A stretch of DNA of 64,000 nt from Tricharina praecox (taxonomy: Eukaryota), in contig NW_026250413.1 of the NCBI RefSeq assembly GCF_024521635.1, positions 310,001-374,000 of the forward strand, given 5' to 3'. Numbering within the stretch: the stretch's first letter is position 1; every line of letters begins with the position of its first letter. Position numbers and translations under genes: made by a program. The notes beneath the pieces are model-generated. The model saw only the letters and a list, made by a program, of their open reading frames with translations, ran no database searches and had not been told where the DNA came from. Shown here piece after piece: positions 10,443-38,265 of this stretch.

Positions 10443-10815
10443 ACGACTAACTGTATCTATTGTTTCTATTTTCGAAGGAAAATTCTATTTTACTTTTTCT
10501 TTACTGGCTGTTGCCCGGTGACACGGAAGGAAGGAAGGGGCGTGCATTCTGTTTCGTTTCGTTTCGTTTCGGATTGGAAAAAAGGCTGGAGGTCGGGGGT
10601 TCGTTCTTTCTTCTCTTTAGTTAGGGCGGGGGGTTTAGGTTTGCATATTTCGGGGGCGGTTTGCGGGTACTTTGCTATTTTTCTTTTTCCTCCTTGTTTT
10701 TCTTGTCGTTCTTGTATTCTGGTTCGCATGATGGGTTACAAGATGACCGTGCTGTTGTTCTTGTGGCTAGGTAGTAGTTTGAATGCTGCATATGCCATAT
10801 GGTGCATACTACCTA

Positions 10816-10856
10816 TCTTGACTCTTGACTCTTGACTCTTGACTCTTGACTCTTGA
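10816..10856. repeat. 7-bp tandem repeat (TCTTGAC)n, about 6 copies
   Basis: Read directly from the sequence. Confidence 0.9.
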
Positions 10857-12429
10857 GATCGTCACTGGGCGGTGGGGACGCAGTGGGGGCTCAGTGGGGG
10901 GCGTGATGATTATGATGCTAGTGATATCGACGCGTATGGGGTAGAATGACTTTGCACTACCTATCCTATATCTACACCGAAACAGTCCCCGCTGTGGCCA
11001 TCCTGCCTGGATATCAGGCCGGGACTCGGGAGATGGCCTGTCGTGACTCGCGGAGACGTGGACACGAGAACTAGGTCTTGGCTTGTAATTCGTAGGAACA
11101 CGGGACTACCGTATCTACATAGATTCACAATGTACGACGTATTTGTATTTTTTATTCGCATATGGGGCTCGCTATGCCTACTTAGGTACTCTTGAGTCGT
11201 AGCAGGCGCCTTTGTGCTCACGTTCTCATATGCCTGGGAAGCTGGGAACAGAGCCGCCGCCAGTACCAGGTAAGTATTGGAGTCACTACGAATCCATGAT
11301 CCATCTGTGAGGCATCTGTGAGGCATCTGTGCGGCATCTGTGCGGCATCTCGGAGGATCTGTTTGGAAGACGTACCTACCGTATGTGCCGTAGGTATGTG
11401 CCGTAGGTAGGTAGATATGTGGCGCTGTTGGCAAGATATTGACTGCGAAGAAGAAGAAGAAGAAGTATCTGGAACAGGCGGGGACCGCTGGGGGACTGCG
11501 CATGGAGGACTCGGGGAGACGCGGAAACGGGGAGATAGGGAGACGGGGAGACGCGGAAATAGTGCTGAGCACTCAGCTCGAGGAAAGGATCACGATATAT
11601 CGTCCGGTGCCCACAACCAGGTTCACCGCCGGCTCCTCCACGAGCCCACCGTCCACCAGCCATCCTCCCAACGGGCGAGGTATTACTATGTCAGCGCGCA
11701 GGACACGAGCCGAAGCCTCGCCCAAGGAACAAACGCCAACAACGCCAACAACGCCGGCACCGCCGGCACCGCCGGGACTGGAGCGTCGAGACTAGAGCGT
11801 TGAGAAGAATCACAGCCCCGGAGTCCGAACCATCCATAATTCACAGAACAGAGAACTGGATACCGGTCTACAAGTTACAACTTACATCTAGAGACCGTAA
11901 TCGCAATCTAGCAGCGGCAGCGGCGGCAGCGGCGTGGGAGTCGGGTTTGGTTCTTTGGACTCTTGGACTCTTGGAGACGAGGAGGGTACGAAGTATGTAT
12001 TCCTATATATATGTGCCGCTGGTATGGGTATGGTGGGGGGGGATCACGTATTGACGTATCCATGGACCTAAGTAATAGATCACGACGTCTACACCAAGAG
12101 AGCCACCGCCGCCGCCGCGAGACCAGCTAATCGGCGTCCCTTGCCTGCCCGCTCGAGACAAGTATTGTACACTTGCCAATCGAAAATTTCTGGAGCAAAG
12201 GTATGGAATTCCCGCTGCACCGCCACCCTAATTTTGTGTAAAAAACCAGGTTTTTTGAAGCAGTCGACTAGGCAACGAAAGTTCGACAGAGAGAAAGAGA
12301 AGTCTTTTTCTATTTTATTGAAGCAATGAAGCTCGCTATGGTGCTGCTTTCCCAACTTTTATAACAATTTTCCGTGGGTTATGTGTTCCATCGGTCGAGA
12401 AGTAAATTTTTGGTTCGTATTTCAATGAT

Positions 12430-12497
12430 GGGTCAATTTATTTTAGTGGCGGGTCAATTTATTTTAGTGGCGAGTCAATCCATCTTAATGACAAGTC
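12430..12497. repeat. 21-bp tandem repeat GGGTCAATTTATTTTAGTGGC, 2 exact copies plus 1 degenerate, in an AT-rich patch
   Basis: Read directly from the sequence. Confidence 0.8.
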
Positions 12498-13042
12498 ACT
12501 AGATGTGCGCATGGCGAGTCAGTAACTTTGATGACTCAAGCGCAAATTCCACTCATCTGATCTGCGCTGTTCGTAACGCGCGACTGGAGACAAATTGGAT
12601 GTTAGACAGTTATCAAATGCAAGCAAATCCTCAGTAAGATTATTCCGATGATACTCTTTTTCTACCCTACCTTCTGTCATATTGCATTGTGTTCGTTGCG
12701 TTGACGCGTACATATGGTACTCTACTTTAGTTATCTAGTGGTCAAGGCGCACAAGCGCCCCGTCCCCGTCCCGCTTGAGGACACTGGAGGAAGGCTACGG
12801 AAGACTCCAAAATCTCTACGGAGAAGGGCGCCAGAAGTCCGTGACGGCGAAGAGAAAGGCATATAATACAACAAACCCCAAGGGCCAAGAGGAGGAATGA
12901 AAATATCACCAATTGTAGCCAAAGCTGCCGGAAAGCTACGAAAATACGAAGTCCGGACTCCGGCCCGGCCCGTCTGGCATGATTTCGAAGCCAAATGCAT
13001 GTAGGTGAAGGAACGGAGAACTAAACAGCAAAAGTATACCTA

Positions 13043-13187
13043 CTGTATAGTGAAGGGGGGGTAAAAAATACGCTATTTTCCGTGTCGATACGGTCAAAAT
13101 ACGTGTTTTGACCGTATTCATACGCTTTTTGACCGTATTGATACGCAAAAAAGCGTATTTTTTACCCCCCCCCCTTTCACTATACAG
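13043..13187. mobile_element. MITE, ~145 bp, Tc1/mariner-like (TA-flanked)
   Basis: Terminal inverted repeats CTGTATAGTGAA-G-run-TAAAAAATACGCT / AGCGTATTTTTTA-C-run-TTTCACTATACAG. TA at 13041-42 and 13188-89. Internal inverted motif ATACGGTCAAAA / TTTTGACCGTAT. Confidence 0.85.
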
Positions 13188-13643
13188 TATGTAGAACTCC
13201 GATTGTGTGATACTCAAATCTGGTGAATACCATTGGCAATCCTGCTCCGGCTATGAACGTTGAATTGGCCTTGAGGCCATATCCCGTGACGCCATTGGTG
13301 CTTGCCTGATGCTGCGTTCCTAGGGCTGTTCGTACTATGTATCACAAAATAGCACTCGCTAATACCTATGCAGGTCTGACCAGTCACGGCAAGGAAGCGG
13401 AAAAATTGTGCTTCTAGCTGCATGCAAAATATTTGGCCTCTTGAAAGTTGAGTGGATGGATCGTGATACGCTACTGCACCCGCTTTCGTACGCTCCAATA
13501 GCGATCGAAATTCGCCATGGCAATTCAGCTGCACGCAGCACCTCCTCACTTATCATAGCGATCTCCGCCTTTAGTGACATTTAGCTCTCTATCTCCTCTA
13601 CTCCGCGTCTCTCGGCTCCCCAGCGCTGAACTTCAGTACCATT

Positions 13644-15779
13644 ATGACTCCATTACCACTACCCGACGGAATATTGTTCGTTCTGTTCATCGCTATCCTT
13701 GCACTACTCCTCCTCAAGCCCAGAATCCAACAACTAGTACGGGAAAGCCGGCCAGAAGAGAAACTTGCGCCGCAACCCGCAATCGACGATGTAGCGGCCG
13801 ACGATACTGGAGTTCACGGAACACGAGTGCAAGCCACCACTACGACAGAAACCAAACCAGATCCTTCGATCGGAGCTCACGGCGATGTATCCCATGCCCA
13901 AGCAACATGTTTCCGGATCTCTGGAATACCCTTCAACTGGGATAGCAACAGGCTCAGACAGGCATTACGGGATATCGATCCTGAACTCTATCTTCCGCCC
14001 GCCGAGCTATCTGAGCTGTTTCCAGCTTGCTGCGACACCTCGCAAGTCGCCTTGCTCACCTTGGAACGCTGTACAGCTTACTTTCAAAACTTCAAACATA
14101 ACGACGAACGCCAGAAAGTATTCGCCGAAAATGGCCGGAAGATTCGACTTGTGTTCGACAAACACTTCTACGATTTGACACCGATGAACAGACCGACTAC
14201 ACCAATCGTTGTTGAGTTAGTGCCGTCACTGTGCTGTCGTTTCAAATGCTGACCCGCGTGTCTATCTAGCGTGATAGCAATTACTGGTCTTGGAGGCCAT
14301 GCGTTTGAGTCGTGGAGGAGCCGGACCACCACTGACCGGCCTGTTGATCGCCCGATGTGGCTTCGTGATTTTTTGCCGCAGGCAATCACAGGCCTTCGAA
14401 TTATGACCTACGGCTATGATAGCAACCTGAAGAACCCTAGTGGGGCAAACCTGACCGACTATCGGCGTAACTTCATGGAGTGTCTACAAAACGCCAGAAG
14501 GGATTGTCCGGTATGTTTTGTTGAGCCCATTCTGCGATTGAATCGTGATCAGCTGAGATGCTTATGATTCTTCTGCACCACTTAGAAACGTCCAATCATC
14601 TTTTTCGGACACAACTTGGGAGGCATACTGGTCGTGCAGGTATGAGAAAAACATACGTCTGGACACTGATATCAACTATTAACGGTTATAGACTTTAATT
14701 GAATCGAGAAAACACTCCAAGCACCGTGGTATCCTCTACTGCATCCGAGGGGTATTCTTCTTCGGAACACCTCATCAAGGACTCAGGACTGTCGAATTCG
14801 ATGAGATGGCTGGCGAACTCGACGATATGGATTCCCAACGGAAGGTTCGCAATCTACTCGCCCAGTTGCGCGAAGGCTCCGAATATCTGGAGAACCAGAA
14901 AGACGACTTGAGCGAGATGTGGGGGAAATTGCGTGGAAAGGTCTTTACTTTCCACGAGACCGAAAAGACAAAGTCGGTCAAAAAGGTGGATATTTCTACC
15001 TTCTGGGATTACATCTATAAAGTTTCCCCGGGCGGCTCTTTTGGTCCTCTTTCGGTGGTCCTGTCTGAAAGCGTGTTTTGGAACCACCGAAAAGGTGGCT
15101 CAAGCTTTCAGTGGTTCTTTCGGTGGTGTCTCTGCTTCACTTCGGAGTCACACTAATCGTTCCAAAGAACCGCCAAAAATTATCAGAAGAAACACCGTCA
15201 AAGATCCTCCAGTGCATGAATGCTGACATCAATTCATCAGCTAGGATCAGGAGTCTTCGAAAGGGCGGGCAACGAGTTCCAAATGGTCCAGCGACTATCA
15301 GCTCAGCTTTACCTTCCGGGGGAATCTCGTTTTCCGATCGCCTCCAATAATATCGACATGGTGAAGTTCGATTCACCTCAGGATAGAGCTTTTCAGACTG
15401 TTGTCACAAGCATGAAGGAGTGTCTCGGTGCGTAAGCGGAATGGTATACTACTAGAATCGGCTCGATTCCAACACTAACCCTAAAAATTCCCAAGAACAA
15501 GTGGATTGCCTGCCCGGTGTAGCTGGAGAGGAAGTTTGTGTTTTAGCTGTCGACACCTTGTTAGCAGCAGGCGCAAATCATGGCTCCGTGAACTGGTGCG
15601 GCGATACACCGCTCCACCGTGCCATCTCGAATGAACACAATGCCACAGTCTGGCTGCGCATCGACCGCGGCGCCGAAGTCTCGGCCGTCAATCACAGCGG
15701 ATCGACGCCGCTGCGCCTCGCGCTCGAGAACGGACGCGACGCGGTAGACCAGCTACTTCGCGATCGAGTGCCACCGTGA
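13644..15779 (+). CDS. N-terminal hydrophobic helix + SesB/SERAC1/DUF676-like alpha/beta-hydrolase + C-terminal ankyrin repeats; exons approx. 13644-14215, 14270-14510, 14586-14639, 14692-14985, 15241-15427, 15496-15779
   Basis: Motifs DVIAITGLGGHAFESW, MWLRDFLP, RIMTYGYDS, RPIIFFGHNLGGILV, GVFFFGTPHQGL, DMVKF. Ankyrin motifs GDTPLHRA and GSTPLRLA. Splicing keeps one open frame. Confidence 0.8.
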
Positions 15780-16189
15780 ATCAACTTTCTTCCGCTTCTT
15801 CCCCAACCTCCTCCCTTTAGCTGTACTCTACTAGACTGGTTATGTTGAGGTAACTAATACCGAGTGGAGGTACCTTTTGGAGAAGAAGAGGGCTACAACG
15901 CGCCGCTACAGCGCACAACTGACAACTCGAGCCTCTTCGGAGGCTCAGTTTCAATTATTGCGACGATGAAGGGATTTGGACTGTCATTTCTGTTTCTGGG
16001 GTTGGGTGGTGGAATTTCATTGCCAAAATGCTGTATTGTAGATACCTCTACCGGCCATAACCTTAGGGTTCCATGCTGTATGAAATATCAATCAATCGAT
16101 CAATCAATTGAGCTGTGCTCCATGTATATATGTGATGAGCCTCTCGTACCTTCCAAGTGAGAAGAAAATATGTGCAGTGAGGTTGCATG

Positions 16190-16235
16190 ATGGTCGAATG
16201 CGTGTGGTGGTCGAATGCGTGTGGTAGTCGAATGC
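16190..16235. repeat. 17-bp tandem repeat with core GTCGAATGCGTGTGG, about 3 copies, upstream of the pogo ORF
   Basis: Read directly from the sequence; may be a subterminal repeat of the transposon. Confidence 0.75.
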
Positions 16236-16395
16236 CCAGACGCTAGGAGGTGAATTTAGGGATAATTGTTTTTCTTTCTTTCCTTTTTTTGTGAGTTTTC
16301 TTTTTTTTTCAGGGGAAGGCTTAGGTCTGTCGGGAACTGTAGTTATGCTCTAGATATCTCTGTAGTGGTGAGAGTCCGGCAGCAAAGCTCAGCAA

Positions 16396-18419
16396 ATGGC
16401 GAATATCAACGAGATCTTCACGGTTACTGATAGCTATGGGGTTGCACGGGATGACGGAGAGCAGGTTGCTGGGAACGATGAGGTTGCGCGGGTTGTCGGA
16501 GAATGGCAGATGGCCAGTGGGGACGACGAGGTTGAGCTGGTTGCTGGGGAGCAGGTGTCTTGGGACAATGAGCCCGCGTCAGCTTCAGGGAGCAGGTTGC
16601 CGGGGCCGATGAGGCTGCGCGGGTTGTCGGGGAGCATTGGGTTGATGGGGACGATGGGGCTGCGCGGGTTGTCGGGGTTGCTGGCGGCGGTGAGGACGCG
16701 CGGGTTGCCGATGGCGATTCGGTTGCGCGGATTCCAACCGACGACAATATCGTATCCGGCGACCCCTTGTTCAACGACGAAATTTTACCCGAATGTGATC
16801 GATTCCAAGACGGTATGGCGATGTACCGCAGTGGTCTTGTGCCTTCCAAGCAGGAGGCGGCTGTGATTTCAGAGATGAAGGTGTCTACCTTTGTACATCG
16901 AAGTCTCGGAAGACGGTCACAGGCAGACTATGGGAAATCACGCCGGCTACTACTGGAAGCGGAGGAGAAGACTTTGATCTGGCGTTGTGATATTCTACAG
17001 CGCGCTGGATTCGCGCAGAATGCGCGGGATGTCAGAGATTTGACCGAAGTACTCCTCCGAAAACGAAATCCAACAGCAACTGTCAGTCCTCGATGGATCG
17101 ACCGGTACTTTTACAAACAAAATCCTGAAGTGAAAGCGAGATGGATTCAACAACTGGATAAAATACGGGTACAGCAGGGGAATAAACACTACGCATTGGA
17201 GCAGTTCTTCGCAAATATAAGTGTCACAGGCCTTTTTTTCTATATTCTTAAGAGAAAGATAGCTGGTTGTGTAATAGATGCATAGTCTAGTCGTCGAATT
17301 CGAAGTGGCACCGAAGGATACCTATGACCTCGACGAAACCGGATTTGTGATGGGAAATGTACAGTCTCAACGGGTGTTGGATTTGATTCGACACCCTCGG
17401 AATACGAAAAGCCGTCGTCGACCAGTACCGGATCTGAAAGAGCTTCAACATTCTGCAGGCGCACGAAGTCAAGATGGCTGCCGAGACTCAGTTGCAACTG
17501 TGATTTTCTGCATCTACACTAATGGCACCTATGTTCCCTCGGCCATTATGATGAAGGGACAGGGACAGCAAGATGCGTGGTTTCAGAATCTTGCTGGAGT
17601 TCCTCGGGATGTACTATTCGGTGCATGCCGCAACGGTTGGGCGGACAACAGCAAGACTCTTGCTTGGCTAAAACACAGTTTTGGTCCCGGAAGCGCAACA
17701 GAGAAGAAGGCTGCAGGGAAGTGGCGGATGCTCATGTTTGATGGAAAAATCTCTCATGTCAACCGTGAATCTCTATCTACTTGTCTCAATTACAAAGTCC
17801 TACCTGTTTGCCTTCCTCCGCACACCACTGATTTTTCTCTACCCCTCGATGTTGCTCTTTTTGCACCACTGCAGTCCGCATATGCCAACATCCTACGGCG
17901 CCATACCGAATTTGGAGGACGAGGTGTTTGGAAAGGAAACTTCTATCACTTTCTGCACGAGGCAGGAAGACGGCATTCACACCGGAGAATATCCGCAGCG
18001 CGTTTTGGTGGACAGGTCTGGTCCCGCTAGACTTTGAAATCATCCGAAGGAAGCTCGATATTCCCAATCCGGTCATCGCGAATACCATCCAGACAACCTC
18101 ACGGCCGCTGGCCCCCCTACTCCCGCCCTCCGAATCTCCAATCCACCATTTATCCCCCACCACTGCCGCCTCCGGCACTACCGTGCCATACGCTATATCC
18201 ACTGCACCACGAGATCACCTCGGAGAATTCCATCAACTACGAGAATCGCCGCTATCATTGGACTTGCAAGGGAACAGCCTTCCCCCGGGTACGTGGACCG
18301 GGCTTCCACATGTTCTGGATCAGGTCCCGAATGCTCATATTTCCAATGAGCTAGGAGCCAAAAGGGGAGCAGCTGGTAGCAGAAAGCAGCCACCGCGAAA
18401 AAGAACGAAGAATTCCTGA
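16396..18419 (+). mobile_element. Degenerate pogo/Fot1-family (Tc1-mariner) DDE transposase
   Basis: CENP-B-type HTH region (LLLEAEEKTLIW...VSPRWIDRYF), YDLDETGF, MLMFDGKISH (family DGHxSH), LPPHTTDFSLPLDVALFAPLQ. Frameshifts near 16590 and 17960; probable intron near 17220-17285. Confidence 0.88.
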
Positions 18420-19937
18420 CGAAGGCCGAGTTTGACTGGACGTCTGATGTCGCACAGGTTGATGAGTGGTTATCTATGTACGTGGTTCGAATATATGTAC
18501 ATACCGTAGGTATTTGACTTGGTGGCGACGAAAATCAGGTGGCTTTGTATGTACATAGGCGAAGGTTCTCGTGACTCCAGTAAAAACGGGATTGGCTACT
18601 AGGCAGTGGAATAATGCGGCCGTGTCCATTAGTTATATACCTATTCAAGATTTTGAGGGCGTGAGTGAATGGTCATGACGACCGCATGGCCGGCCAGGAA
18701 TACTCTAAATCCATGATTACACGTAGGTACATAACTACCACTGTATGTATTAATGTCGAGAATGTTGAATTGAATGGTATCATGCTTGTAAAGAACACCG
18801 TGCACTGTTCGGCCTGAAAACAGCCGAATAAGAAACCGATACGGTATTCGCCCACACTCGCGCCCGCCATCCGTTAACTATCTCGGTATCATTCAACGAG
18901 TTTGTTCGCACAAGCTCTTGGTGGTGTCTTTCTCATGAACGAGTACCTACCTTAGCTACCTACCTACCTAGAGTCCTAAACGCATGAAGAAGCGCAGGAA
19001 AAGTGCAGGAACGCAACCAACCGGTGCAGGCGGCGCACCGGACAACTGCGGAAATGCCATGGCCGTCTAGACTGTATTCAGTTGGCCGCCATGTAGTGGT
19101 GACAGCGGGGTAGGGGTGAAGCCAGAGGCATCATGGTCCATCGGGCGAGCTCAGGCGAGCTCAGGTGATGGCATGCCAAAAGATCATCAACCTGCGGAAG
19201 CTAGGACAGCCACCTACAACGTTAGGAGTCAGAACAACCACGATATCCAGGGATGCCTCATTGCCTGTCGCTAGATTCGGGACTCATAGGAATAGCACTG
19301 TAAGTAAAGCCGGCCACGGCCCAGCCCAACAGCCGGAACAGCCGCTTCGCCTTCCAACTCCTCCGCCTTTCGAAAGGAAACAAGGCGAGGCTGGCAACCC
19401 GATTGGCAGACGAACGGTGAACCGTGACCTTCCGGGGCTAATCGGATCGGTTAAGACTCGGTGGAGACGGCGATACTCTACTGGGTAAAGCGAAAGCACC
19501 ACACTACACGTTCTCCCACTGGAATGGCCACAAAGTCCACATGGCATGCTGGGCTACTACCAAGAGGCCTATGATGCCGTGTGCGCAGTCACCATACGGG
19601 CACGTGCACTGGAAGAGGCCACCGGCAGACGGCACACTCTCTTAGCAGGGTCACCATCTACAAACCTGAATCATGAACGAGTACGGTAGATACAGTAGTG
19701 TACCTATATGATCACAGAGGTAGAAAATTATGGTAAACCGGAACCAAAGAAAGGCGGGACCATCATTTTGTTTGTTTCATCATCATTGCATTTGACCTTA
19801 GTAGATCATAGCACATTACATGAGTATATATACCCGCCAACTTGCAGACTGATCTAAAAGACCAAACCAACCCACCCACGAGCTGCAGCGAGATGCAGCG
19901 AAGTCAGGCCATCCTGAAGGCGAGCCACCTAGCTTCG

Positions 19938-20682
19938 GCTTCCACACCTTGAAGGGTGGCCAGCATACGGTCGTATGCACGAGCAGCTCCTCCACGCTGC
20001 ACGTGGGTCGTGACCCAACGTGGTGATTCTGGTGTCAAGGCCCATCTTGTTAGAAAGCACATTTTTGACGAATTCTGCGGTAATTGGAGTCAGGCCACGA
20101 TCGGTAGCCCCCTCCGCGACGATGACAATCGTCTTTCTCTTCCCCATCCCACGGTGCTGCAAATAAACGTCAGTAATCCACAGACTATCACTCGGGACAC
20201 GTTTCCACTAACCTTCGCGATGATTGCACACATCTCGGTTTCCCAGCCCTTAGCCGGGGGCTTCTCAGGCAAGAATACGAAGTCCGCCCCGGTACTGACA
20301 CCAGCCATCAGCGCCAACCACCCGCAGTGTCGTCCCATGACCTCGACGACGAAAGCTCGCGAGCGAGAGTAGGCGGTGGCATCGATGAAATCCACGCTCT
20401 GACAGATTCTAGTAAGAGAACTGTAGCATCCAATGGTCGCATCGGTTCCGATCATATCGTTGTCGATGCTGCCGACCAATCCAGCGATGTTGAGGTTCTG
20501 GTACGGCTCAATCTGCTCCTGCTTGAGCTCGCCATTCTTGACGAGCTCAGCCAGTAGCCCGAGCCACTCGCCGGAAGATATCCGCACCAGTGAGCGAACC
20601 GTCTCCACCACAGATGATGAGTGCATCGATCCTGTTAATGATAAGGTTTTTGGCACCCCTCAGAGGGCCATCTCGATCCTCT
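19938..20682 (-). pseudogene. PFK: Internal fragment of 6-phosphofructokinase with retained intron (20157-20212) and two frameshifts
   Basis: [94 protein letters not shown]. No start and no C-terminal half. Confidence 0.95.
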
Positions 20683-21265
20683 TCTTCTTGGCACTACCGC
20701 CGGAGCGGATAGGTCGGCTGACCATGGGGGTATCCCCCCCATCATTCCCATCTCGCCGGCCTAATTTCCGGAGAAAAATATCATGCCGCTACCGCGACTG
20801 TGTATGCCCGCAGGGGGCTGAATGGTGGGAATTGAAGGGGATGACAACCGAGGGGTTTATCGGGTGTTGATGTCGATGGTGAGGGGAGAGAGAGAGAAAG
20901 GAGAGGGGTTTGTCGGGGGTTGATGTTGATGATGAGGAGAAAGAGAGAGAGAAGGGAGGGGAGCGGAGAGAGAGGAGCCTTTTATTCGGAAGCGGGGGAC
21001 GGCCTAGTGCGGCCTGGTGCGGCCTGGTGCGGCCTGGTGCGGGCGGGGTTATGCCCACATCCCCGCATCCCCGCACACGCCGGAGAACTAGTCCACACAT
21101 GCCGAAGAAGGCAGGAAAACTCTATCATTATAGGTCTTACCTAGACGAAAAGCACTCTTCTAACGGAAGGGGACGAAACACATGTTCTCTCGGTGTGATA
21201 CTAGACATAGTTGGAACTTACATTGTACAGTACCGTATGATACAGCTGCTATCTAGAAACTATAC

Positions 21266-21340
21266 ACACCAACTTTCTCAAACACACCAACTTTCTCAAA
21301 CACACCAACTTTCTCAAACACACCAACTTTCTCAAACACA
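21266..21340. repeat. 18-bp tandem repeat CACACCAACTTTCTCAAA x4 within scaffold unit 1
   Basis: Read directly; present as a single copy near 26125 and 28020 in sister units. Confidence 0.9.
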
Positions 21341-21374
21341 CCCGGTCCGTAGGAATTGAACACATCAAGGGGCC

Positions 21375-21451
21375 TATGGTAATCGACCACAAAAAAAGCG
21401 CCCATGGTAATCGACCGCAAAAAAGCGACCATGGTAATCGACCACAAAAAA
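21375..21451. repeat. Three repeats of ATGGTAATCGACC(A/G)CAAAAAA; four related copies at ~28047-28163
   Basis: Read directly from the sequence. Confidence 0.85.
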
Positions 21452-24400
21452 GATCTGTACATACAAGACCAAAACGCACCTCCGTCGCTGTGCAAGGATA
21501 GCAATCCTTCCCGGCTGACAGGGAGATAATCACACAGGTCAAAGGAATGGTATGACACTTCTTCTCTTGACCGTCACGCCGAGCTGGATGTCCAATATGA
21601 CAAATACTAGGTATCTCGACCATCCTATTCCGGAGCTGATCGGGCCGATCAGAGGATGGCGGTATGTACTAGACTTAGATCAAGCGGAAGCGGAAGCACC
21701 AGACTGCACGGTCTCCATTATATGAACGTAGAGAAAAAAGCCAAGACCCGCGTAGATGGCCCCGGCCAGCCTAGGGACTGTTAATGTTCACGCTCGAGTT
21801 TCAGACGGGAGCTAGAGTGATCGGATGTGCGGACAAATGGAAAAACGGCTCCCGCTACTGTAGGCCTAGACATAATGCGGAGTGCGCAGTTAACACGCGG
21901 GTACTGGAAGAGGGGAACGGTGACGATATTGATGTGATTGTAAAACTGTAGAACTGGAATCTTCCCCACCACCACTACTCCGCCGACTTGAAGACTGATT
22001 CAAAAGACCAAACGCAGAACTCAAGGAATTATTATCACGGAACGCCAACTCCGGGCCCCACTCAAGAAAATCAAGGCTTCGCCCTCTATTATACACAGCA
22101 ACAAGGTCAATGAGAAGGTGATGGCTAGCTTGGCCCAATTTGGACTGCTGCAGATAGGTTGGTAACGAGTGATATCAAAAGCATTCGGCGAGTGGGCTCT
22201 TCCGCAAAACAACAGGTGTAAATTAGTACAAACAGGCTCTCTAACATTATGTATCTAGCAGCATATATTCCCACTTCCCTCCTTCTGAAGCTTTCCTCAA
22301 CATTTGAGACAGTAAAATAAGTTACAATCCTCACAAGACTAACTTCCTCTCGCTATAGTAACTAAGTCTGCCGCTCTCGCTATAGTAATCGGGTCCGCCG
22401 CTCTCGCTATAATAGCTAGATTGGGGGTTCCAAGTATGGCTTCGTCAAAGTAGGAATCCGCCGCAGCATCTTGTGGTCTTGTCGAAGGCTTTACGGTAAA
22501 GGTAAAGGTCTCTCCCAAGCCTTGAGGAACCAATCACAGAACTCATTGCCACAGAAATGGTGGACGTCGGAGTATTGCTGAATCAGGCCCATTATGAGCT
22601 CTTGTGGGAGGTGGGATAGGTTCTGGATCTCTATCTGCTGACTGATTTTCACAACACATCGCATCGTCAGCGCGGTTGTTCCAGCAAGCATCAAGTGGGA
22701 GAGGGGGGTAGTCCGCGGAAACGTACCGAGCGCATCTTCCGAGAACTGGGTTGGTTCTCGTGTGGACGATAGCTCCACAATGTGGGCACCGTAAAACTTG
22801 GTTGTATTAGCTGCATATCCCCCATCGCGTTCGGTGGTCATTGGTGCGGTGCTACATACCTGGTAACGGCCAGCAAAGGGCGGAGCAGCGGTTAGCCACT
22901 GCCGCCGCCACCAGCACCCTACTGCTCGGGGGAAATGATTCCGCCCGAACTGCGGTGTGAGGACGTTGATTTTCGTGACCCCCGCGGCCGCAGCAGCTGC
23001 GGCCGCGGCGGTGGCGGCGTATGCCCGCATGAGGCTGATTGATAGCCGCTGCGGGATGCGCATCGAAGGGTTTGTGGAGTGTCCATTTGCCTCTCGCACG
23101 ATGAGAATACCGGGAGAATGCTCCAGATCTCTCTGGGTATGGAGGATTCCAGGATGCTCCGGTCTCGCATTAAGCTTCTTGCTCAACGCTATGCGGGCGC
23201 TATGCGGGCCGTCAGCAACCAGACAGCAGATAGGGACGTAGGAAGCCGAACATTTGAAAGCGGGATTTATCAAGTGTTGATGTTGATGATGACGTATGTG
23301 ATGGGGAGAGAAAGAGAGAGAGAGGAGAGAGGAGGGCGGAGACAGGACCTATTTATTGAAAATCGGCGGGCTAGGTGCGGCCTAGTGCGGGCAGGGTTAA
23401 GCCCGCATCCCCGCACACACCGAGGAACTAGGTACCAGTACACACCAGAGTGGAAGGCAGGGCGACCACCGGCAACTACTGAGAACCTCAGCCTTCGGAA
23501 CAACCATGATATCCAGGGATGCCTTATTGCCTATCGCTGCAGTCGGGACTCAGCATCTACTAGGTATGTATGTATAAGTAATTCCGGCCACGGTGGTCCG
23601 CAACGGACTCTTCGCCGCCGTCAAAATTCAAACCCCTCAGTCTCGGAGCCTCCCGAAAGGAAACCGGGCGGGGCTGACAGCGCGATCGGCAAACGAACGG
23701 TGAACCGTAACCTTCCTACGCCGATCGGGCTGGTCAGAGACGGCGGTACTACTAGTAGATAAAGCGGAAGCCCCAGAATTCCCGGTCTCCCCATGGACGA
23801 AGAGCAAAAAACCAAGACCCGAGCAGAAGTTGAAGGCCCCCCTCGTTAGCCCCCTTAGAACTACGGTTTTGCGGACGGTTCTTTTGCCAACGCCCTCCAG
23901 GCCGGAGGCGGGATCGAGAGGAGAACACACACAGAACTTAGAAGGAACAGAGGATATGGAGGTTTATCGCCTATTCCGTAGATGATAAGAGAGAAAGAAG
24001 AAGAAGAAGGAGCAGACGACTAAGGAGCAGACGATTAAGAAGCAGACGACTAAGAAGCAGACGACTATGTAAGGAGTAGATGACTCCGCTGGACCCGCCA
24101 ACGTTGATGCTGCCTAATAAGCCATTCGCTTCCTCCCACCGACAAGTCCTTTCGCTGACAGGTCCTCCATTGCCCCGCCACAACGGTATTGACGTTCACC
24201 GGTGGATTTCTGATGGATTCTGGTGAGATCGGATATGCGGTCCCGCGGCAAAACGGCTGAAAGTCCACATGTGCTAACATAGTTACTACCAAGAGACCTG
24301 TATGATGTGGAGTGCGCAGTCACCACCCGGACCCGTGCACTAGAAGCGGCCACCAGCAGACGACACACTCTCTTATATAGCAGTTTCACCATCTACAAAC

Positions 24401-24929
24401 GAAAATCATGAACGAGTATGGTAGATACGGTAGAGTACCTACCGGAACCAAAGAAAGGCGGTACCATTGTTTTATTTGTTTCATCATCATTGCATTCGAT
24501 CTTAGTAGATCATGGAAGATTACATGAGTATATACCCGCCAACTTGGAGACTGATCTAAAAGAACAAACTCAGAACTGAAGGAATTTTATCCACCGAACA
24601 CCAACTCTCTTGCCCCCCCCCCCCCCCACCCCCTCTCACACCCGGGTTGATTTACCCGTGCCACCCTGGCCGCCCAAAGCTTCCTCGTTCCGCTGTCTGT
24701 ATGGAGCCCAATGGATTAGATCCATGTCCTTCATCGCGTTCAGTGGTAGTCGGTGCGGTGCTACATACCTGCTAACCGCCAGCAAAGGGCGGAGCAACGG
24801 TTAGTAACCACCGCCGCCGCCACCGGAACCCTACTACGCGGGGGGAAATAATCCCGCCCGAACGGTTCGGTCATGGTGATGTGCGCAACCTCCGCGGCGG
24901 TGGCGGCGTATGCCCGCTTGGGGCTGGGT

Positions 24930-25120
24930 TCTTTGAGGGCGAAGTGGAACTCGGCCTCGTTTTCGACGTAGCTGAGCTTCTCGAGGTCAAGGTTTGTGGC
25001 ATCCTCGGACGACAACTTCTTGGGCACGGAGCCCTCGCTGTTGAAGAGCTCCTCGAGGAGGTTGGGGGAGATGGAGAGGTAGTCGCATCCGGAGAGCTCA
25101 GTGATCTCGCCAACGTCGCG
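24930..25120 (-). pseudogene. TAL1: Fragment of transaldolase (C-terminal third)
   Basis: Hand translation: [64 protein letters not shown], matching the transaldolase FRNxGEIxELAGCDYLTISPxLLEEL region. Confidence 0.92.
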
Positions 25121-25145
25121 GATGTCCCTGGGAAATTCCTAGGCA

Positions 25146-25441
25146 TGACTGTTCGAATGCTTCCTCGTCGGCAAGAGGGAAATCGTCGACTCGTTCGACT
25201 TTAGCGATGAGGTAATCATCCCGGTAGCCCCACTTCTTGATCCTAAACTTGGATCGCCGACCGTCCAGATATGGCTGTGACCGTCTGCATAAACTTGTAT
25301 GGAATCGATCTGCAGCATCGTTCCATACTCCATGAATGGAGTCCCCTCCGCGTCTCCTACCCCGTTGCTAACGAAGTTCGGAAGCACCATTCCGAACTGT
25401 TGAATCAGCAATCGATATCGAGCCTCGAATATGAAAAGCAT
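25146..25441 (-). pseudogene. Fragment of a LON substrate-binding (PUA-like) domain of fungal LON/RING-finger proteins; one frameshift, probable internal deletion
   Basis: LFIFEARYRLLI, FGMVLPN, PFMEYGTMLQI, YADGHSHIWTVG, then in a shifted frame SKFRIKKWGYRDDYLIAKVERVDDFPLADEEAFE (family LHIFEPRYRLM...DGRSLI.TVG.SRFR...DGY). Confidence 0.85.
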
Positions 25442-25679
25442 GGTCGTCGGTGCGGTGCTACATACCTGATAACTTTACAGTTACCGTCAGCAGAGGGCGC
25501 AGGAAAGATTGGTTGATAGTATCGTAGTCGAAATGATTCCGCCGATGTGTGTGAAACACATCATCGGTTCGCGGTGGCCTAGGCGACGGCGACGGCGGCT
25601 TATGCCCGCATGGGGCTGGTTGTTGGGTTGATTGAATGGATTGCTCCGAGGGGCTTGTTGAGTGTTGAAGTTGAAGTTG

Positions 25680-25870
25680 ATGTTTGATGTATATGATGAG
25701 GAGAGGATAGAGAGGAAGGGAGAGGAGACGGGAGAGAGAGGAGCTATTTATAAGAAACGGTGGCGGCCTAGTGCGGCGTGGTGCGGGAAGTACTGAGACC
25801 GCATCCCCGTATCCCCGCACACGCCGAGACACTAGGCACCAGTACACGCTGGACTGGAAGGCAGGGCGAC
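25680..25870 (-). promoter_or_regulatory. Core-promoter-like module of the array (best copy): TATAAATAG followed by a CT-rich tract and CA-rich leader; sister copies near 20980, 23350, 27635
   Basis: Minus-strand CTTATAAATAG at 25744-25754; sister copies read CAATAAATAG or GAATAAAAG at the same position. Function is inferred. Confidence 0.55.
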
Positions 25871-27091
25871 TCTGTCGTTAGCACTGACATATCCGAGCCT
25901 ACGCTGCCTGTAACTTTCGCCGCACTCGTGATTTTGATACAAATTTGGTATGCCTTCTGGCATCTGAAGGGAGTACGGTATGTAGCATTCTTGCTTCATC
26001 CGGAGTCATGACGCCATACCTACATAGAGTGAATCACTGGTGCGCTCCAGCGTCGGGTAGAAAATGTGCTTCCGTACAAATTTTCATTCGTATGTATAAT
26101 ACCACTGGTCTTTAGAAACGATACCAACTTTCTCAAACACAGCAATGGGCTCATGGTAATTGGCCAAAAAAAGAGCATATCAAATGCAAACTCCTCCGCT
26201 GTACAAAGACTCATATGCTCCGAGTGATGATGCATGAAGCCGTGTGGTCTCCCCCCTCATTACACAGTTAGTACACGCGGTGGAAGGCAGGATAACTCTG
26301 TCATTAATATTCACATATTCAAGCTTCTTATCGAGAATCGAACAGCACTCGGCCAACGTAAGGGGACGAAACAGACTGCACACTCTCTCAACAGGGTCAC
26401 CATCTACAAATGGACAAAAATCATGAACGAGTACGTAGATACGGTAGAGTAGGTAGCTGATCACAGAGGTAGATAATTCATGGTATATACATGCAGAATA
26501 TACCCGACCAAAGAAAGACGGTACCATTGTTTTTTTTTGTTTAATCATCATTGCATTCGACCTCAGTAGTAGATCATGGGAGATATATACCCGCCAATTT
26601 GGAGGCTGATCTAAAAGACTAAATGCAGAACTGAAGGAATTCTTTCCACCGAACACCAACTCCTTTGGTCCCCCCGCCCCCTCTCACACCCGGGTTGATT
26701 TACCCGTGCCACCCTGGCCGCCCCGAAGCTTCCTCGTTCCGCTGTCTGTATGGAGCCCAACGTATTAGATGCATGTCCCTCGTCGCGTTCGGTGGTCGTC
26801 GGTGCGGTGCTACATACCTGGTAACCAGTCACCGCCAGCAAAGGGCAAAGGAATGGTCCGTCGATAATCACATCGGTGCCGGCGCTCGGGGGGAACTAAT
26901 TCCGCCCGATAGCACTATGTGTGCCATGCCCTAGTTGCCGGGCGGGGAGGGGGTAGGAAGGCATCAATAGATGAATGCTATTTCCTTCGTGATATTCTGA
27001 TCAAAAAATCAGCCTCCTTCCTTTATCGTGCGGCAAACGAATCATCATGGAATATGACTTTTCTTACCTTCCATGGCATTCAACCAGATAA

Positions 27092-27211
27092 CGAGAACTG
27101 GCTTGGGTTAGAGCCGTACTCGTAAACAAACCTGGAAGCAAGGTAGCTCCCGAAGATTGCCTTGAGGTAGTTATCTAGAACCCTCTCAAGGATGGTGTCA
27201 AGGCCGATCTG
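27092..27211 (-). pseudogene. GDH2: Fragment of the NAD-specific glutamate dehydrogenase C-terminus
   Basis: Hand translation (absent from the ORF track): QIGLDTILERVLDNYLKAIFGSYLASRFVYEYGSNPSQFS, matching the fungal NAD-GDH tail RVPxxYLRAIFGSYLASRFVY. Confidence 0.88.
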
Positions 27212-29270
27212 CCATGCTCAAAGCCCAAAGTATTAGATGCATATCCCTCATCGCGATCGGTGGTAGTCGGTGCGGTACTACATACCTGCTTGACCGCCAA
27301 CAAAGGGCGGAGCAGCGGTTAGCCGCCACCGCCATAGCTGCTGCCACCGCCACCACCGGCACCCTACCATTCGGGGGGAAATAATTCCGCCCGAACGAGT
27401 TAGTCATAGTGATGTGCACGACTTCCGCGGCGGTGGCGGTGGTGTATTCCCGCTTGGGGCTGGGTTCGTTGAGAGGTTTTTGGTAGTTAGGTAAGGAAGA
27501 GAGGAGAGTATGTGTGGATGGAAGAAGGAGATGATTTGAAAGCGGGGTTTATCGAGTGTTGATGCTGAGGATGATGTATGTGATGGGGAGAGAAAGATAG
27601 AGAGAGAGGAGAATGGAGGGCGGAGAGAGGAGCTATTTATTGAAAACGGCGGGCTAGGTGCGGCCTAGGTGCGGACTAGTGCGGGCGGGTTTAAGCCCGC
27701 ATCCCCGCACACGCCGAGGAACTAGGCACCAGTACACACCGGAGTGGAAGGCAGGGCGATTCTGTCGTTAGTATGTGCTCACATGCGAGCCCACGCTGCC
27801 TGTAACTATCGTCGTACTCGTGATTTTGGTACAAAGTAGGCGTGCCTTCTGGCATCTGTAGGGAGTACGGTATGTAGCTTTCTCGCTTCATCCCGAGTCA
27901 CGACGCCATACCTACATAGAGTGAATCACTGGTGCGGTCCAACGTCGTGGATGAAATGTGATACCATACAGATTTCATTTCTATGTATGATAGATACCAC
28001 TGTTCTCTAGAAACGATACCAACCTTCTCAAACACAGCAATGGGCCATGGTAATCGACCACAAAAAGGCGCCCATTATAATCGACCACAAACAATGGCGG
28101 CGGGCCTATGGTAATCGACCACAAAAAACGGCGGCGGGCCCATGGCAGGTAATCGACCAAAAACCTCGGTATACATACAAGACCGCAAGTTGAAACGCAA
28201 CCTCCGCCGCCGCTGCTGTGCGAGGAGAGCTACAAAGGTATCCTTCCCGGCTGAAAGGCAGATAATCGCACAGGTCGACGGAATGGTTGGTGTGTAGCCC
28301 CACCGGCTCTTCTAGGTATATATCCGACCGATTAGTGAATCCAAGAATCCACCTATATCCAGACCAGTGCTTCCCCCAGATTCCGAGCCCTGGTGCTCCC
28401 GTACTCTCGCACCACGGAAGCAGCGCACAGAGTGAATGACTGCTGCCTGCATTGTGACTCGTGAGTCGGCGCAGAGTGTTCCGCCGTCCGATCTTCGTCC
28501 AATCCTCGCGCGGTTTCAGGTTTCGCCGTTTCAGCGCCGGTTTCAATATTTTTCCAGTCATTATGAATTGATTGCAAGCGACCTGTCACCTGTAGATATA
28601 GTATACCCCAGATCACGGCAGTATACTACCGGTACCTAGTCGTCCTACACACAGCGGTTCTACGTTCCACGTTTCCGGAGCCGGATTCCGAATTCCGCGT
28701 ACGACAGATGCTAAATCGGGTCGAGTGATGATCCATGTAGTCGTCCGGTCCCCCCTCCCCGTATGTACTCGTACGAATCCCGGCGCGATGAAAATCTGAA
28801 GTCTGACGTGTACCACTTTTTTGACAGTCTGACAGGTTGGCCGCGCGGCCGTTACAACTCTCGCTTCTCTTGCTCCGATACCGGTAGACCGGGACCGGGA
28901 CCTGCGCAGGCGCATCGGCCCCACACACGGACATACGCGGCCAAGCACGACGTGATATGTATCTATGTGGACTACCGTATGCCGCTTGATGAACCGTATG
29001 TACGGGAGAGAGAACTGCCGTTTCGTCCCAGTGGTTCGGTTCGGTGGGGATCTAGAGAGCCAGATGGATTCCAGAAACTTCTAGATTGCATTTACACCTG
29101 TGTCCGGTCCGGTCCAAAAACTCCCTCCCCCATCCCCCCCTCCCCCGGCCCCCCATATCATGAGTGAGTGAGACATCTACGCAGCTCGGGGGAAGGTGGG
29201 GGGAGGGGGGTGTGTGTTCTACTCTACTCTACTGCATCAAAAATAGTCCATAGTCCGTACTTACGGCGTG

Positions 29271-30317
29271 CTACCGCTTCTTCCTCAACAATCCCATCTC
29301 CCTCAATCCCTCCTTTACGAACCTGCCCACGACTCTAAGCGCCTCCTCGGCACGCCTATCCCCGCGCTTCCTCATCCACAGTAGCACCAGACCCCAAAAT
29401 ATAGCTTCGATGGCGAGGTGTCTTGCTGAAGCCCAAACTGCCCACGCGAACCACACCCACGCCTTCTTCGCCCTCGCCCTACTCTTCTCCACGCGCCGAC
29501 TCTCGAGCTGCTCCCTCAGCGCGGCCACCTCCGTCGCCATCTTCGCCAGTGCATTTTCCACGCGGCCTCTCCACGCCCTCTCCCGCGGGACCTGCTCGCC
29601 CTCCTCCCCGGTACTCGGAAACACCTCCTCGCCGTAGGGCTTAGGGCTAACCAAGCCGAGGCCCAGCTCCATCTCCAGCTCCTCATCCTCGAGTTGTGCG
29701 CCGCCGCCGCCGCCGCCGTGCCCATACGACTGCGAGTGAGTGCTCGGCACGTTGCTGCGGATCTGATCCCACACGAACTCGAGCTCGGAGACCAGTTCGC
29801 GCGCCTCCGGCGTCGCCGACGCGTACCGGTGCATCGTCTCGATCAGCGTGGTGACGTAGCGCCGCTTGGCCTCCGTGCGCGATAGCCCCGCTTGCGCGTG
29901 CCACGCTTCCCACTTGTCGACTTCGGTGCGGTGCGCGTCGGGGTCTACCGGGACGGTGGAGGTGCTGGTGGAGGTCGGGTTGGGCGTCGACGGGCGCGAC
30001 ATCACGCCTTCTACGTCGCCCTCTGAAGGGAGTCAGCTGTTGTGCGGAGGGTGCCGGCAGAGGGAGAGACTACGCACCCATGCTCTGCTTGTAGAGGCCA
30101 TAGAGTTGGAGACGCGCCTCGGGCGGCGGCCGCGCTGAGCCCTTGCGGGGGATCTTGCGGACGGTTTGCAGTGCATGCGCGAAGACTCTATCTGCGATGT
30201 GAGCTCCCGGGTCAGCCAGCCATGTCTTGAAGTCGCGGATCACGAACAGGGGTAAGCAATGGGAGCTGTGGAAGCCGAGGGAGTGACGGGAGGAAGCTCA
30301 CCGACGGAATCAGACAT
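29271..30317 (-). CDS. Acyl-CoA-binding (ACBP) domain protein with coiled coil and C-terminal hydrophobic segment; exons 30317-30302, 30191-30078, 30022-29271
   Basis: Spliced N-terminus MSDSVDRVFAHALQTVRKIPRKGSARPPPEARLQLYGLYKQSMEGDV...KWEAW...GLSRTEAKRRYVTTLIETMHRYA. Confidence 0.9.
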
Positions 30318-36600: not shown

Positions 36601-38265
36601 TTCGCGCGAGGACGTGTGTAACTACCGTACTCTACCGTATGCTCGTCGAGTGACGGTCGAATGTGTCGGTACTCTACCTATGGCGGATACGGGGCGCTAA
36701 CAACTTGGTTGGTGGGTTTGTGGAGGGATATTTCGACGTTCGACGTTCGACGTTCGACATGCATAGGAGGTGGGTACCCAGGCAGAGTAGGTACTGACAC
36801 AGCGACACAGTTGAAACTTGACACAGTGACACATTCGACCAGTATACCGCCGCCACTGCCAGGGAAGCCGCTCTGCTCTAGGCAGCACCCACTCAGGTCG
36901 CCACGCATGCGCGCGCACTTTCCGAATCCCGATATCCGCGCGAACCACTACTAGGTATGATAGAGTAGGGTGCACTACCCCTTCGTCACGGGGCGGGGAA
37001 ATTGGCGATGGACACGGCCGGTGAATTGGAAACGAGTACCGTACCGTACGTTGGCTACCGGACCGCGAGAAGCGAGATCCTGGTGGTCGTCACTCGAGAT
37101 TCGCGGCCGCAATACCTACCTGTGTATGAGGTAGGTATGCACCACGTAAGTACCCACACGCCTGCGCGGCTATCGCGACTTGCTTCGGATGTTTGGACGG
37201 CATTCGGGAGCGCACAATTTCTTGGATGGATAGATGAATGGATCAAAACGTTTCCCCGCCGCTCGGGAGGATCACTACCTGAACCCGTGACGACTGTAGA
37301 GTACGACCGTTCTGCATAGCTTATCACTCGGGATAACCGCTTTTCTTGTTTGCGTGAGACCAATCGTGAGTCTCAGAGACAGTTGGGAGGAACCAGATGT
37401 GTACTACATCCATGATCTACTAAATTCGAATGCTAAGATGGTTAAACAAACAAAAATTAGATCGTGCGTTTAGTGTCTACATCGAAATTCTAATTGTAAA
37501 GGCAAACTTGAAAGCTTGGGTATGTCTTCACTTAAGTTTGAGGATGGTATGCATACACACCGCTGCTGGACCGTGAATCATGGCAACTTGGCAATCTGGA
37601 AGCGGAGTGGCCAGGGTGGAAATGTACACATCTAATCACCTGCGGGTATATTACAGCGCGGACAACCGGTGTCAGGAAAAACGCTTCAGTATGCGCAAGT
37701 ATCGATGGGATCTAGATGTTTCTTCTGGTTCGTTTCGTCGAGTCCTAGATGCATATCTTGATACGGTATCACGCATGTGACCCACGGTAAACGTGATGTT
37801 ATAAAGCTCCCCACAGTCTACAATCTGCTTACCGTCATGAACTGTGAATGCCCGCACACTCTGATGGTAGAACCCCCCCGAGCACTGGACACATGCGGGC
37901 TTAGGATCCCTGAGTCAATTAGGCTTTGGCTTTGGCTTAAGTTTTCAGGCGTAACCGTAAATTGTAATGAACACAGAGTTTGGAGAAAACCCCAACGAAA
38001 ATTTTCACAAGGTTTAAGTTCCAGTGTCTCTACACCTCTCATAGAACTCTGTCGAAACAACTCGACAGGAAGCTCAACTGAGTACATACCAGTTATAAAG
38101 CCCTTGGTTGGCCGCTCGCCTTTCCCTTCCCTCCATCTCTCGTACCATCTTCATCACCACCTGTCACTCGACACAAGCCATCCGCACCAATCTTTCGCTT
38201 GCACAACATTTCGTTCATAACACCGTTTCCACACGTCACGTTTCTCCCACGTAAGCTCTCTCACA

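Follow-up and report, generated by a model that had tools for sequence, protein, structure and literature searches.

Organization of the tandem array

The window analyzed here, a stretch of 64,000 nt (64 kb) from the fungus Tricharina praecox (assembly GCF_024521635.1, contig NW_026250413.1, positions 310,001 to 374,000 of the forward strand), carries an array of four head-to-tail units at positions 19207–28287 of the minus strand, in which pieces of different host genes sit inside successive copies of one non-coding scaffold. Blastn against the window and unit-versus-unit blastn delimited U4 (26174–28287), U3 (23467–26173), U2 (21552–23466), and U1 (19207–21551), all on the minus strand and with the same module order in each, running from the upstream modules A and B through a promoter-like module C, a short module E, and an intron-like module I to the 3' modules F, G, and H. 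Such a series of minus-strand units with ordered common modules had been proposed in an earlier inspection of the letters, here called the sequence-only reading, and was borne out by the repeat search and blastn, the shared modules being 64–94% identical between units and the long ones (>200 nt) 64–86% identical. The repeat search collected 38 direct-repeat families in 18000–29500 and no inverted pair of at least 25 nt in the same interval, and the promoter-like landmarks (repeat family D9) lie 1889, 2395, and 2371 bp apart.

Every unit–unit junction is different, one leading from H through 29 nt into C, another from a partial H through ~70 nt into A, and the third from a partial G with a B-like remnant into B; the first modules of the units are A, B, C, and A, and the last ones G, H, partial H, and H. 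Each junction can be derived by deletion from a single ancestral H-to-A junction, and because all of them differ, tandem duplication followed by indels fits better than repeated precise transposition. The array holds many other indels besides the gene-fragment inserts, and its substitutions are drift-like, with 205 transitions to 178 transversions across eight module pairs. On this ratio, together with unremarkable indices, repeat-induced point mutation was rejected.

Gene fragments carried by the units

Six inserts of 0.1–0.8 kb are present, all between module C and module F, and five of them are fragments of five genes within 9.1 kb. The sequence-only reading had named four, from phosphofructokinase (PFK), a LON domain protein, transaldolase, and NAD-specific glutamate dehydrogenase (NAD-GDH), all in sense orientation; these identities and orientations held, with weaker support for LON, whereas the count did not, since a fifth sense piece, the 3' end of a zinc-ribbon gene, is also there. 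The placement of the cargo downstream of a conserved promoter-like module, likewise proposed, applies to all five pieces, each in sense.

The PFK piece in U1 (19937–20771, minus strand, sense; Pfam 3.6e-33 and 3.1e-7) corresponds to about residues 260–520 of the ~970-aa fungal PFKs and keeps a 56-nt intron at 20157–20212. Compared with its best database match, the protein is 94% identical over a stretch of 120 aa and 83% identical over one of 41 aa. Tblastn followed the piece through frames −3, −1, −3, and −1, which amounts to two frameshifts, and the first segment runs across an in-frame stop, indicating that the cargo looks like pseudogene fragments and not like a maintained product.

U3 contains two pieces in direct succession. 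The LON substrate-binding (LON N-terminal) domain piece (~25150–25441, minus strand, sense) starts mid-exon, immediately past nucleotide 33 of an I copy, and was recognized by a Pfam match with an E value of 0.079 and by Atlas, where 28 of 30 feature matches were LON (best 0.93) and the structure rows pointed to ascomycete LON-plus-RING proteins; PDB gave no match for it, and its identity is less well backed than that of the other named cargo. The start of this insert was considered as the tail of a parental intron, which would have made "chimeric introns", and this was rejected because its translation is LON coding sequence. Directly after it follows the transaldolase piece (24929–25138, minus strand, sense), fused to E and corresponding to about residues 239–304 of the 339-aa yeast transaldolase, with a Pfam match of 7.9e-4 and matches to 20 PDB transaldolases (best 1.5e-7). 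Both Pfam values, 0.079 and 7.9e-4, lie below the curated cut-off.

The pieces in U2 and U4 are gene ends. In U2, the last ~75 codons plus stop of a zinc-ribbon hypothetical gene (22491–22803, minus strand, sense) gave a single match among 1.84 billion representatives (E 2e-19, 88%), namely P0121, a 268-aa hypothetical protein of T. praecox whose zinc-ribbon Pfam matches are all sub-threshold. Tblastn placed residues 194–219 and ~220–266 of P0121 in two exons, and relative to the spliced model the intron between them is retained. In U4, the last 40 codons plus stop of NAD-GDH (27080–27211, minus strand, sense) were identified by 269 of 276 candidates at E ≤ 0.01, with 33 of 40 residues matching residues 1017–1056 of a 1060-aa NAD-GDH and 92.5% identity to a T. 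praecox protein over 40 aa. PDB was uninformative for both pieces. The stop codons are followed by ~420 nt (22071–22490) and ~180 nt (26901–27079) without a match, which may be the 3' flanks of the zinc-ribbon and NAD-GDH genes, respectively.

The sixth, unit-specific insert lies between C and E of U2 (23049–23233, minus strand) and had no match to other units, to the window, or in Pfam, where it was represented by a 285-aa open reading frame (ORF). No local template for the inserts without identity was found in the 64-kb window.

Introns or 3' flanks are present in three of the five pieces, and the introns kept in two of them (PFK and zinc-ribbon) show that the cargo was copied as DNA; retroposition, that is, template switching of a reverse transcriptase on spliced mRNA, was excluded on the same ground. 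The capture of intron-containing pieces from several unrelated genes, as foreseen from the sequence alone, is accordingly found for five genes, with introns in two pieces. The further idea that well-expressed metabolic genes are sampled fits three of the five parent genes and fails for the other two, which are not metabolic. The best named cargo matches are from Pezizomycetes (Tricharina, Sphaerosporella, Pyronema, and Morchella), and tblastn found none of the parent genes within the 64-kb window. Unit-versus-unit blastn showed no cargo common to two units, all inter-unit matches being scaffold modules, so the captures postdate the unit duplications or occurred unit by unit. Three inserts begin within I, each at a position of its own.

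Fragments copied at the DNA level from dispersed genes are densely packed in the array, as is characteristic of a gene-fragment hotspot; fragments in such hotspots would also turn over rapidly between close relatives and be re-transcribed. Against this stands the view that nothing special happened and that a neutrally decaying tandem duplication received ordinary dispersed duplications by chance, in a genome that would hold many of them throughout. Pseudogenized cargo, a statistically weak orientation bias, and the many other indels are what such a history would leave; however, five fragments of five unlinked genes and a sixth insert, all within 9.1 kb and in the same module interval of the four units, are hard to accommodate, and no fragments were noticed in Pfam scans of the neighboring ORFs, which covered long ORFs only. 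This view is considered rather improbable. An assembly chimera or collapsed repeat, which the sequence-only reading had listed as a possible refutation, is very unlikely, because the units differ by 14–36% with nothing near-identical to confuse an assembler, and because the cargo carries private frameshifts and a stop and is joined to the scaffold at unique junctions.

Upstream, promoter-like, and 3' modules

Module A consists of upstream repeats of 27–34-nt units and was found by the repeat search and blastn in U4 (28018–28287, minus strand) and U1 (21322–21551, minus strand). Module B, for which nhmmer was used in addition, is present in U4 (27780–28067) and U3 (25888–26173) and as short remnants at 21235–21290 and 26270–26372, all on the minus strand. 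The upstream region of U1 also includes a perfect 18-nt tandem repeat of 4.4 copies with 100% identity (21264–21342, plus strand). The copies in U3 and U4 hold just a partial, diverged match to this 18-nt unit, indicating that the repeat in U1 is a recent local expansion in an old array.

Module C is kept in all four units, at 27516–27759 (U4), 25650–25870 (U3), 23234–23466 (U2), and 20902–21130 (U1) of the minus strand, as established by a four-copy alignment and blastn and, for U4, by the repeat search as well. Each copy contains GC boxes, 10–11-nt repeats, a small hairpin, a TATA-like box, a CT-rich tract, and a leader. Long invariant blocks run through all four copies, and yet U1 is only 64–78% identical to the others in this module. 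Two adjacent GCGGGG boxes are invariant in 4/4 C modules (27690–27720, 25790–25830, 23395–23425, and 21040–21080, minus strand) and are followed by two to four copies of a CCGCACC-type 10–11-nt repeat whose core is met again at the 5' end of module I. We take these boxes to fit the CreA/Mig1 consensus SYGGRG. Judged by its motifs, module C is promoter-like, and a promoter function is putative.

The 3' modules F, G, and H together make up ~0.9 kb. By blastn and nhmmer, F/G lies at 26372–26753 in U4, 24260–24704 in U3, and 19532–19867 in U1, and in U2 at 21973–22070 plus a diverged part at 21688–21850; by blastn, H lies at 23473–23797 in U3 and 19207–19523 in U1 (all minus strand). Searching the 64-kb window with nhmmer profiles of the modules gave a single scaffold-like piece outside the array, 48 nt of module F at 37408–37455 (plus strand; E 7.4e-8), which matches the best-conserved part of F, shows 84–85% identity in blastn with the copies in U1 and U3, and could be either a dispersed element of short length or a motif shared by 3' ends. 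It lies on the strand opposite to the array. A metagenome scan with an F-module pattern returned 0 matches, and the F–G ORF had no Atlas match.

Palindromic and intron-like modules

Module E occurs in two subtypes on the minus strand. In type 1, ~110 nt form an imperfect palindrome that is conserved and has a hairpin at its center; this type is present in U4 (copy U4a, 27294–27473), U3 (copy U3b, 24776–24937), and U2 (22868–23048, with an extra nested palindrome at 22978–23012). Folding of these copies, in that order, gave minus-strand z values of −4.16, −2.02, and −4.39 and plus-strand values of −4.42, −1.69, and −3.14. Type 2, recognized by alignment and subtype comparison, comprises a copy in U4 with the 3' part only (U4b, 26826–26900) and a copy in U3 without the right palindrome arm (U3a, 25474–25629, also found by blastn). 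A remnant of E in U1 (20772–20831) was identified by the repeat search, alignment, and nhmmer.

Module I has the shape of a 72-nt fungal intron, with GTATGT, CTAAT, and AG, and is a putative intron. The U4a copy (27222–27293, minus strand) was located by the repeat search and alignment, and the other minus-strand copies by alignment (26754–26825, 24705–24775, and 22803–22867, and the first 33 nt only at 25441–25473). Nowhere in the array is conservation higher than in those first 33 nt, with 85–96% identity between copies. The intron motif GTATGTAGYACCGCACC, which the sequence-only reading had singled out as conserved, occurs five times, always on the minus strand, against 0.03 occurrences expected, and none of 100 shuffles reached five. 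Scanning metagenomes with an I-module pattern gave 0 matches.

The inserts in U3 and U4 had been described as bracketed by direct copies of the exon/intron module. Bracketed they are; the bracketing copies, however, are two diverged subtypes, with E/I identities of 85–86% within type 1, 68% within type 2, and 57–70% across types, and therefore are not fresh local duplications.

The conservation of module C and the fold of E might hint at a maintained regulatory RNA locus, in which four co-regulated promoters would drive chimeric non-coding transcripts that tune the parent genes via small RNAs derived from the tandem-repeat transcripts or as decoys. Module C is far better conserved than the array average and has the invariant GC boxes with their putative resemblance to CreA/Mig1 sites, all cargo lies in sense downstream of it, E folds as a long hairpin, and three cargo genes come from central carbon and nitrogen metabolism. 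The cargo itself argues otherwise, as it is decaying (the PFK frameshifts and stop) and neither shared nor conserved between units, and two of the five parent genes are not metabolic. No Rfam family matched, and the proposal takes its cue only from the conservation of module C and the hairpin. Such a locus would be a long shot.

Coding potential of the scaffold

The scaffold is non-coding. Module E, which the sequence-only reading had taken for a short exon, has a candidate ATG in only two of five copies, and a 1-nt gap in U2 breaks the translated frame, so that the exon reading was given up in favor of an imperfect palindrome. The variable columns show no codon periodicity in three- and four-copy comparisons (7/13/7 in E–I and 8/7/7 in F). 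A search for homologues of the peptide in the E frame scored none of 21 candidates (one frame, proteins of 63–203 aa), and the other frame, through I and F, had no match in Pfam or PDB. No ORF in the array is longer than 285 aa. Neither a conserved frame nor homologues of the shared part, the marks of an ordinary protein-coding tandem family, were found.

Between the U4b and U3b copies (26720–26830 and 24680–24780, minus strand), seven of nine differences across I and the beginning of F occupy a single codon phase of an open frame, most of them being synonymous, and this frame had no match in Pfam or PDB. A hidden exon in the I module was considered and rejected, as p is ~0.025 before correction for at least 13 blocks and the three- and four-copy comparisons do not confirm it. 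No RNA families (Rfam) or tRNAs were detected at gathering thresholds, and a sub-threshold snoRNA-like match (E 0.74) was dismissed.

Signatures of mobile elements

Among 24 ORF translations from 18900–28700, only those overlapping the cargo matched Pfam, and no transposase, Rep/helicase, or reverse transcriptase domain was present, in agreement with what had been noticed from the sequence alone. The absence of Rep/helicase is compatible with a non-autonomous Helitron copy. Canonical Helitron1 elements form dispersed multi-copy families, insert at AT without target duplication, and carry a hairpin 10–12 nt before the 3' CTRR end. The sequence-only reading had suggested a check for Helitron ends or for inverted repeats at the termini of aligned copies, and neither emerged at the unit edges. 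Helitron1 ends (TC...hairpin-CTRR) are missing there, the edges being different in all four units; the single conserved hairpin plus CTAG lies inside the module C homology block and is followed by G in three of four units, not by T or TC. Module H ends in CTGA in U1 and CCGA in U3, with no usable hairpin. Seven inverted pairs of at least 12 nt occur in 18500–28700, none of which recurs at unit edges, and neither Helitron2-type asymmetric terminal repeats of 12–16 nt nor TCAG.../...ATTTT ends were found. Terminal inverted repeats (TIRs) around units or inserts were also lacking (0 pairs of at least 25 nt and none suitably placed at 12 nt or more), which excludes a MULE-type capture. A long-terminal-repeat structure was dropped because no terminal copy of the promoter-like module follows U1 and no primer-binding-site-like sequence was seen.

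The strongest case for a mobile origin is a cluster of non-autonomous rolling-circle (Helitron-like) elements, each of which would have captured host DNA, via bypass of the 3' end or filler-DNA repair during transposition, before inserting head-to-tail next to its relatives, with the repeated E/I as multiple element termini. It accounts for DNA-level capture with introns, several genes in one orientation, tandem units, and the lack of coding capacity and TIRs. The repeat-insert-repeat layout with two E/I subtypes is what a composite with a second element's terminus would be expected to give, and all four C modules retain a small hairpin with CTAG after it. Multiple termini and tandem insertions are described for Helitrons in the accessible portion of PMC5148889. 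That portion also describes the Helitron2/Helentron-like elements of Pezizomycotina (FoHeli type) as having 12–16-bp asymmetric terminal inverted repeats, terminal hairpins, and TCAG.../...ATTTT ends, and the array shows neither such repeats nor such ends. The units moreover share no common 5' or 3' terminus, the conserved CTAG is internal to a homology block with G after it in three of four units, module I is interrupted by inserts at three separate points, and conservation extends over the whole ~2-kb unit and not over short ends. There is no Rep/helicase and no other copy in the remaining 55 kb of the window save the 48-nt piece, and four independent adjacent insertions in the same orientation would need strong self-targeting. 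Taken with both sets of observations, this origin is the main rival of the reading favored here, and a rather unlikely one.

Proposed origin of the inserts

With somewhat less than an even chance of being right, the reading favored here is that an array formed long ago by tandem repetition of a non-coding, promoter-bearing unit has acted as a local sink, taking up duplicative, DNA-level insertions of gene pieces from ectopic loci close to the palindromic E/I region. The observations made earlier on the sequence are confirmed and their interpretation is partly supported. For the way in which the array collects gene fragments, we infer a course that would begin with the tandem duplication of a non-coding, transcription-unit-like element. 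Breaks or stalled forks would then arise in the palindromic, presumably transcribed E/I region, and ectopic templates would be copied during their repair, whether by template switching or through ectopic recombination, with microhomology as a possible aid. The outcome would be inserts of 0.1–0.8 kb, sometimes two in a row, acquired in place and later decaying as pseudogene fragments.

Several observations suit this sequence of events. The LON and transaldolase pieces side by side fit the ectopic-copy repair of breaks, and so would a possible microhomology at the transaldolase–scaffold junction, where the last 9 nt of the transaldolase homology match the U4 scaffold at 8/9 positions. Also in favor are the common C-to-F interval of all six inserts, the conserved palindrome of E type 1, the heterogeneous unit junctions, the invariant blocks of module C, and the absence of the parent genes from the window. 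The units differ by 14–36%, the cargo is nearer to functional genes (PFK 94%/83%, NAD-GDH 92.5%), and no cargo is shared, which suggests that the array came first and that the cargo entered later, one unit at a time and always in the same slot. The shared sense orientation could be chance, or, in an idea of our own, antisense copies of essential genes could have been selected against where an active promoter lies ahead of them.

Other points weigh against the local sink. The break hotspot driven by a palindrome is hypothetical, and the type 2 E copies lack palindrome arms and yet flank inserts too, while the units are only presumably transcribed. The bracketing of the inserts in U3 and U4 by two diverged E/I subtypes is not predicted by a simple leave-and-return template switch and would fit recombination between units, or an element composite as in Helitron end-bypass, better. 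The estimate that the cargo is younger than the units is a rough argument, built on proteins in which parent and orthologue are not distinguishable, and the junction microhomology is likewise a rough indication. The orientation bias is weak, five of five pieces in sense corresponding to p ~0.03 one-sided and 0.06 two-sided (all five one way). Should the scaffold turn out to be a dispersed multi-copy family, the transposon explanation would gain.

Comparison with known systems

The capture of gene fragments by transposons is well known in plants and animals, and local tinkering hotspots have only recently been described, in Drosophila. The closest described phenomena are non-autonomous Helitrons and these Drosophila tinkering loci. 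Inserts of 0.1–0.8 kb from distant loci, two of them in a row, and a possible junction microhomology resemble the templated insertions or filler DNA at double-strand breaks and the products of microhomology-mediated template switching. The array is set apart by its orientation bias and by recurrence, six inserts having entered the four units of a single repeated locus. Pack-MULEs and the transduplication by TIR transposons, of which a fungal case exists, also place host gene fragments inside a repeated non-coding frame, but no terminal inverted repeats flank the units or inserts of the array.

Non-autonomous gene-capturing Helitrons of plants, bats, and fungi (Fusarium and Pleurotus; accessible portion of PMC5148889) share with the array the DNA-level capture of intron-containing pieces from several genes, one common orientation, a tandem or multi-terminus arrangement, the lack of coding capacity, and the potential for chimeric transcripts. 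The array differs in having units without shared TC/CTRR or asymmetric terminal-inverted-repeat ends, a conserved ~2-kb unit, heterogeneous junctions, and no visible Rep/helicase.

In Drosophila, "exon shuffling hotspots" or "tinkering loci" are small regions that gather DNA-level fragments of dispersed genes and are proposed to re-transcribe them (Weisman, bioRxiv 10.1101/2025.10.28.685065; 10.64898/2026.08.09.743762; accessible portions), and the mechanism proposed there is ectopic recombination at transposons. As far as these portions go, the array is alike in being a small region with fragments of many dispersed genes, some with a parental intron or flank, and in having repeats nearby; re-transcription, proposed for the Drosophila loci, may by analogy occur here as well. 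It is unlike them in being fungal, in using the same slot in each tandem unit with its own promoter-like module, and in carrying all cargo in one orientation. No fungal report of a tandem, promoter-bearing non-coding scaffold with different host gene pieces in each unit was found in the open-access literature, supplements not covered.

An analogy, and no more than that, links the array to mobile integrons, where a promoter is followed by same-orientation cassettes beside ~110-nt imperfect palindromes. In contrast to integrons, the array lies in a eukaryote, no recombinase was found, the cargo consists of broken gene pieces with introns, and palindromes do not mark every boundary. The array might still be a working cassette collector, in which a palindrome-marked slot behind a regulated promoter, present four times, recurrently takes in host-gene pieces in sense and chimeric non-coding transcripts or small RNAs feed back on the parents. 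A collector of this kind would amount to the eukaryotic equivalent, working without a recombinase, of an integron-like or trans-acting-siRNA-like locus, and it is judged a shade more improbable even than the regulatory RNA locus.

If transcribed, the array would supply a compact fungal genome with a ready source of chimeric RNAs and would offer a clean way of testing how capture comes to be biased in orientation; as no more than a decayed transposon cluster, it would be ordinary.

Genomic surroundings

Pfam scans of neighboring ORFs showed that the surroundings are an ordinary gene-dense region, with glutamate synthase, an NmrA-like gene, XPA, a WD40 protein, HSF, and an ACBP-like gene (29274–30032) among the neighbors of the array. 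A remnant of a DDE_1 transposase (pogo/Tc1-like; 17278–18416, plus strand; Pfam 2.4e-16) directly adjoins the array, and the ORFs upstream of it (16372–17282) are repetitive and without a Pfam match. The interval between this remnant and the glutamate synthase gene, 10300–16300, is gene-poor; the six long ORFs scanned from it had no match in Pfam, and no search for gene fragments was made there. The glutamate synthase (GOGAT) gene itself (4011–10215, plus strand) was recognized by a Glu_synthase match of 1e-156 together with its partner domains and lies 9 kb from the array. Its proximity to an array that carries an NAD-GDH piece is probably a coincidence.

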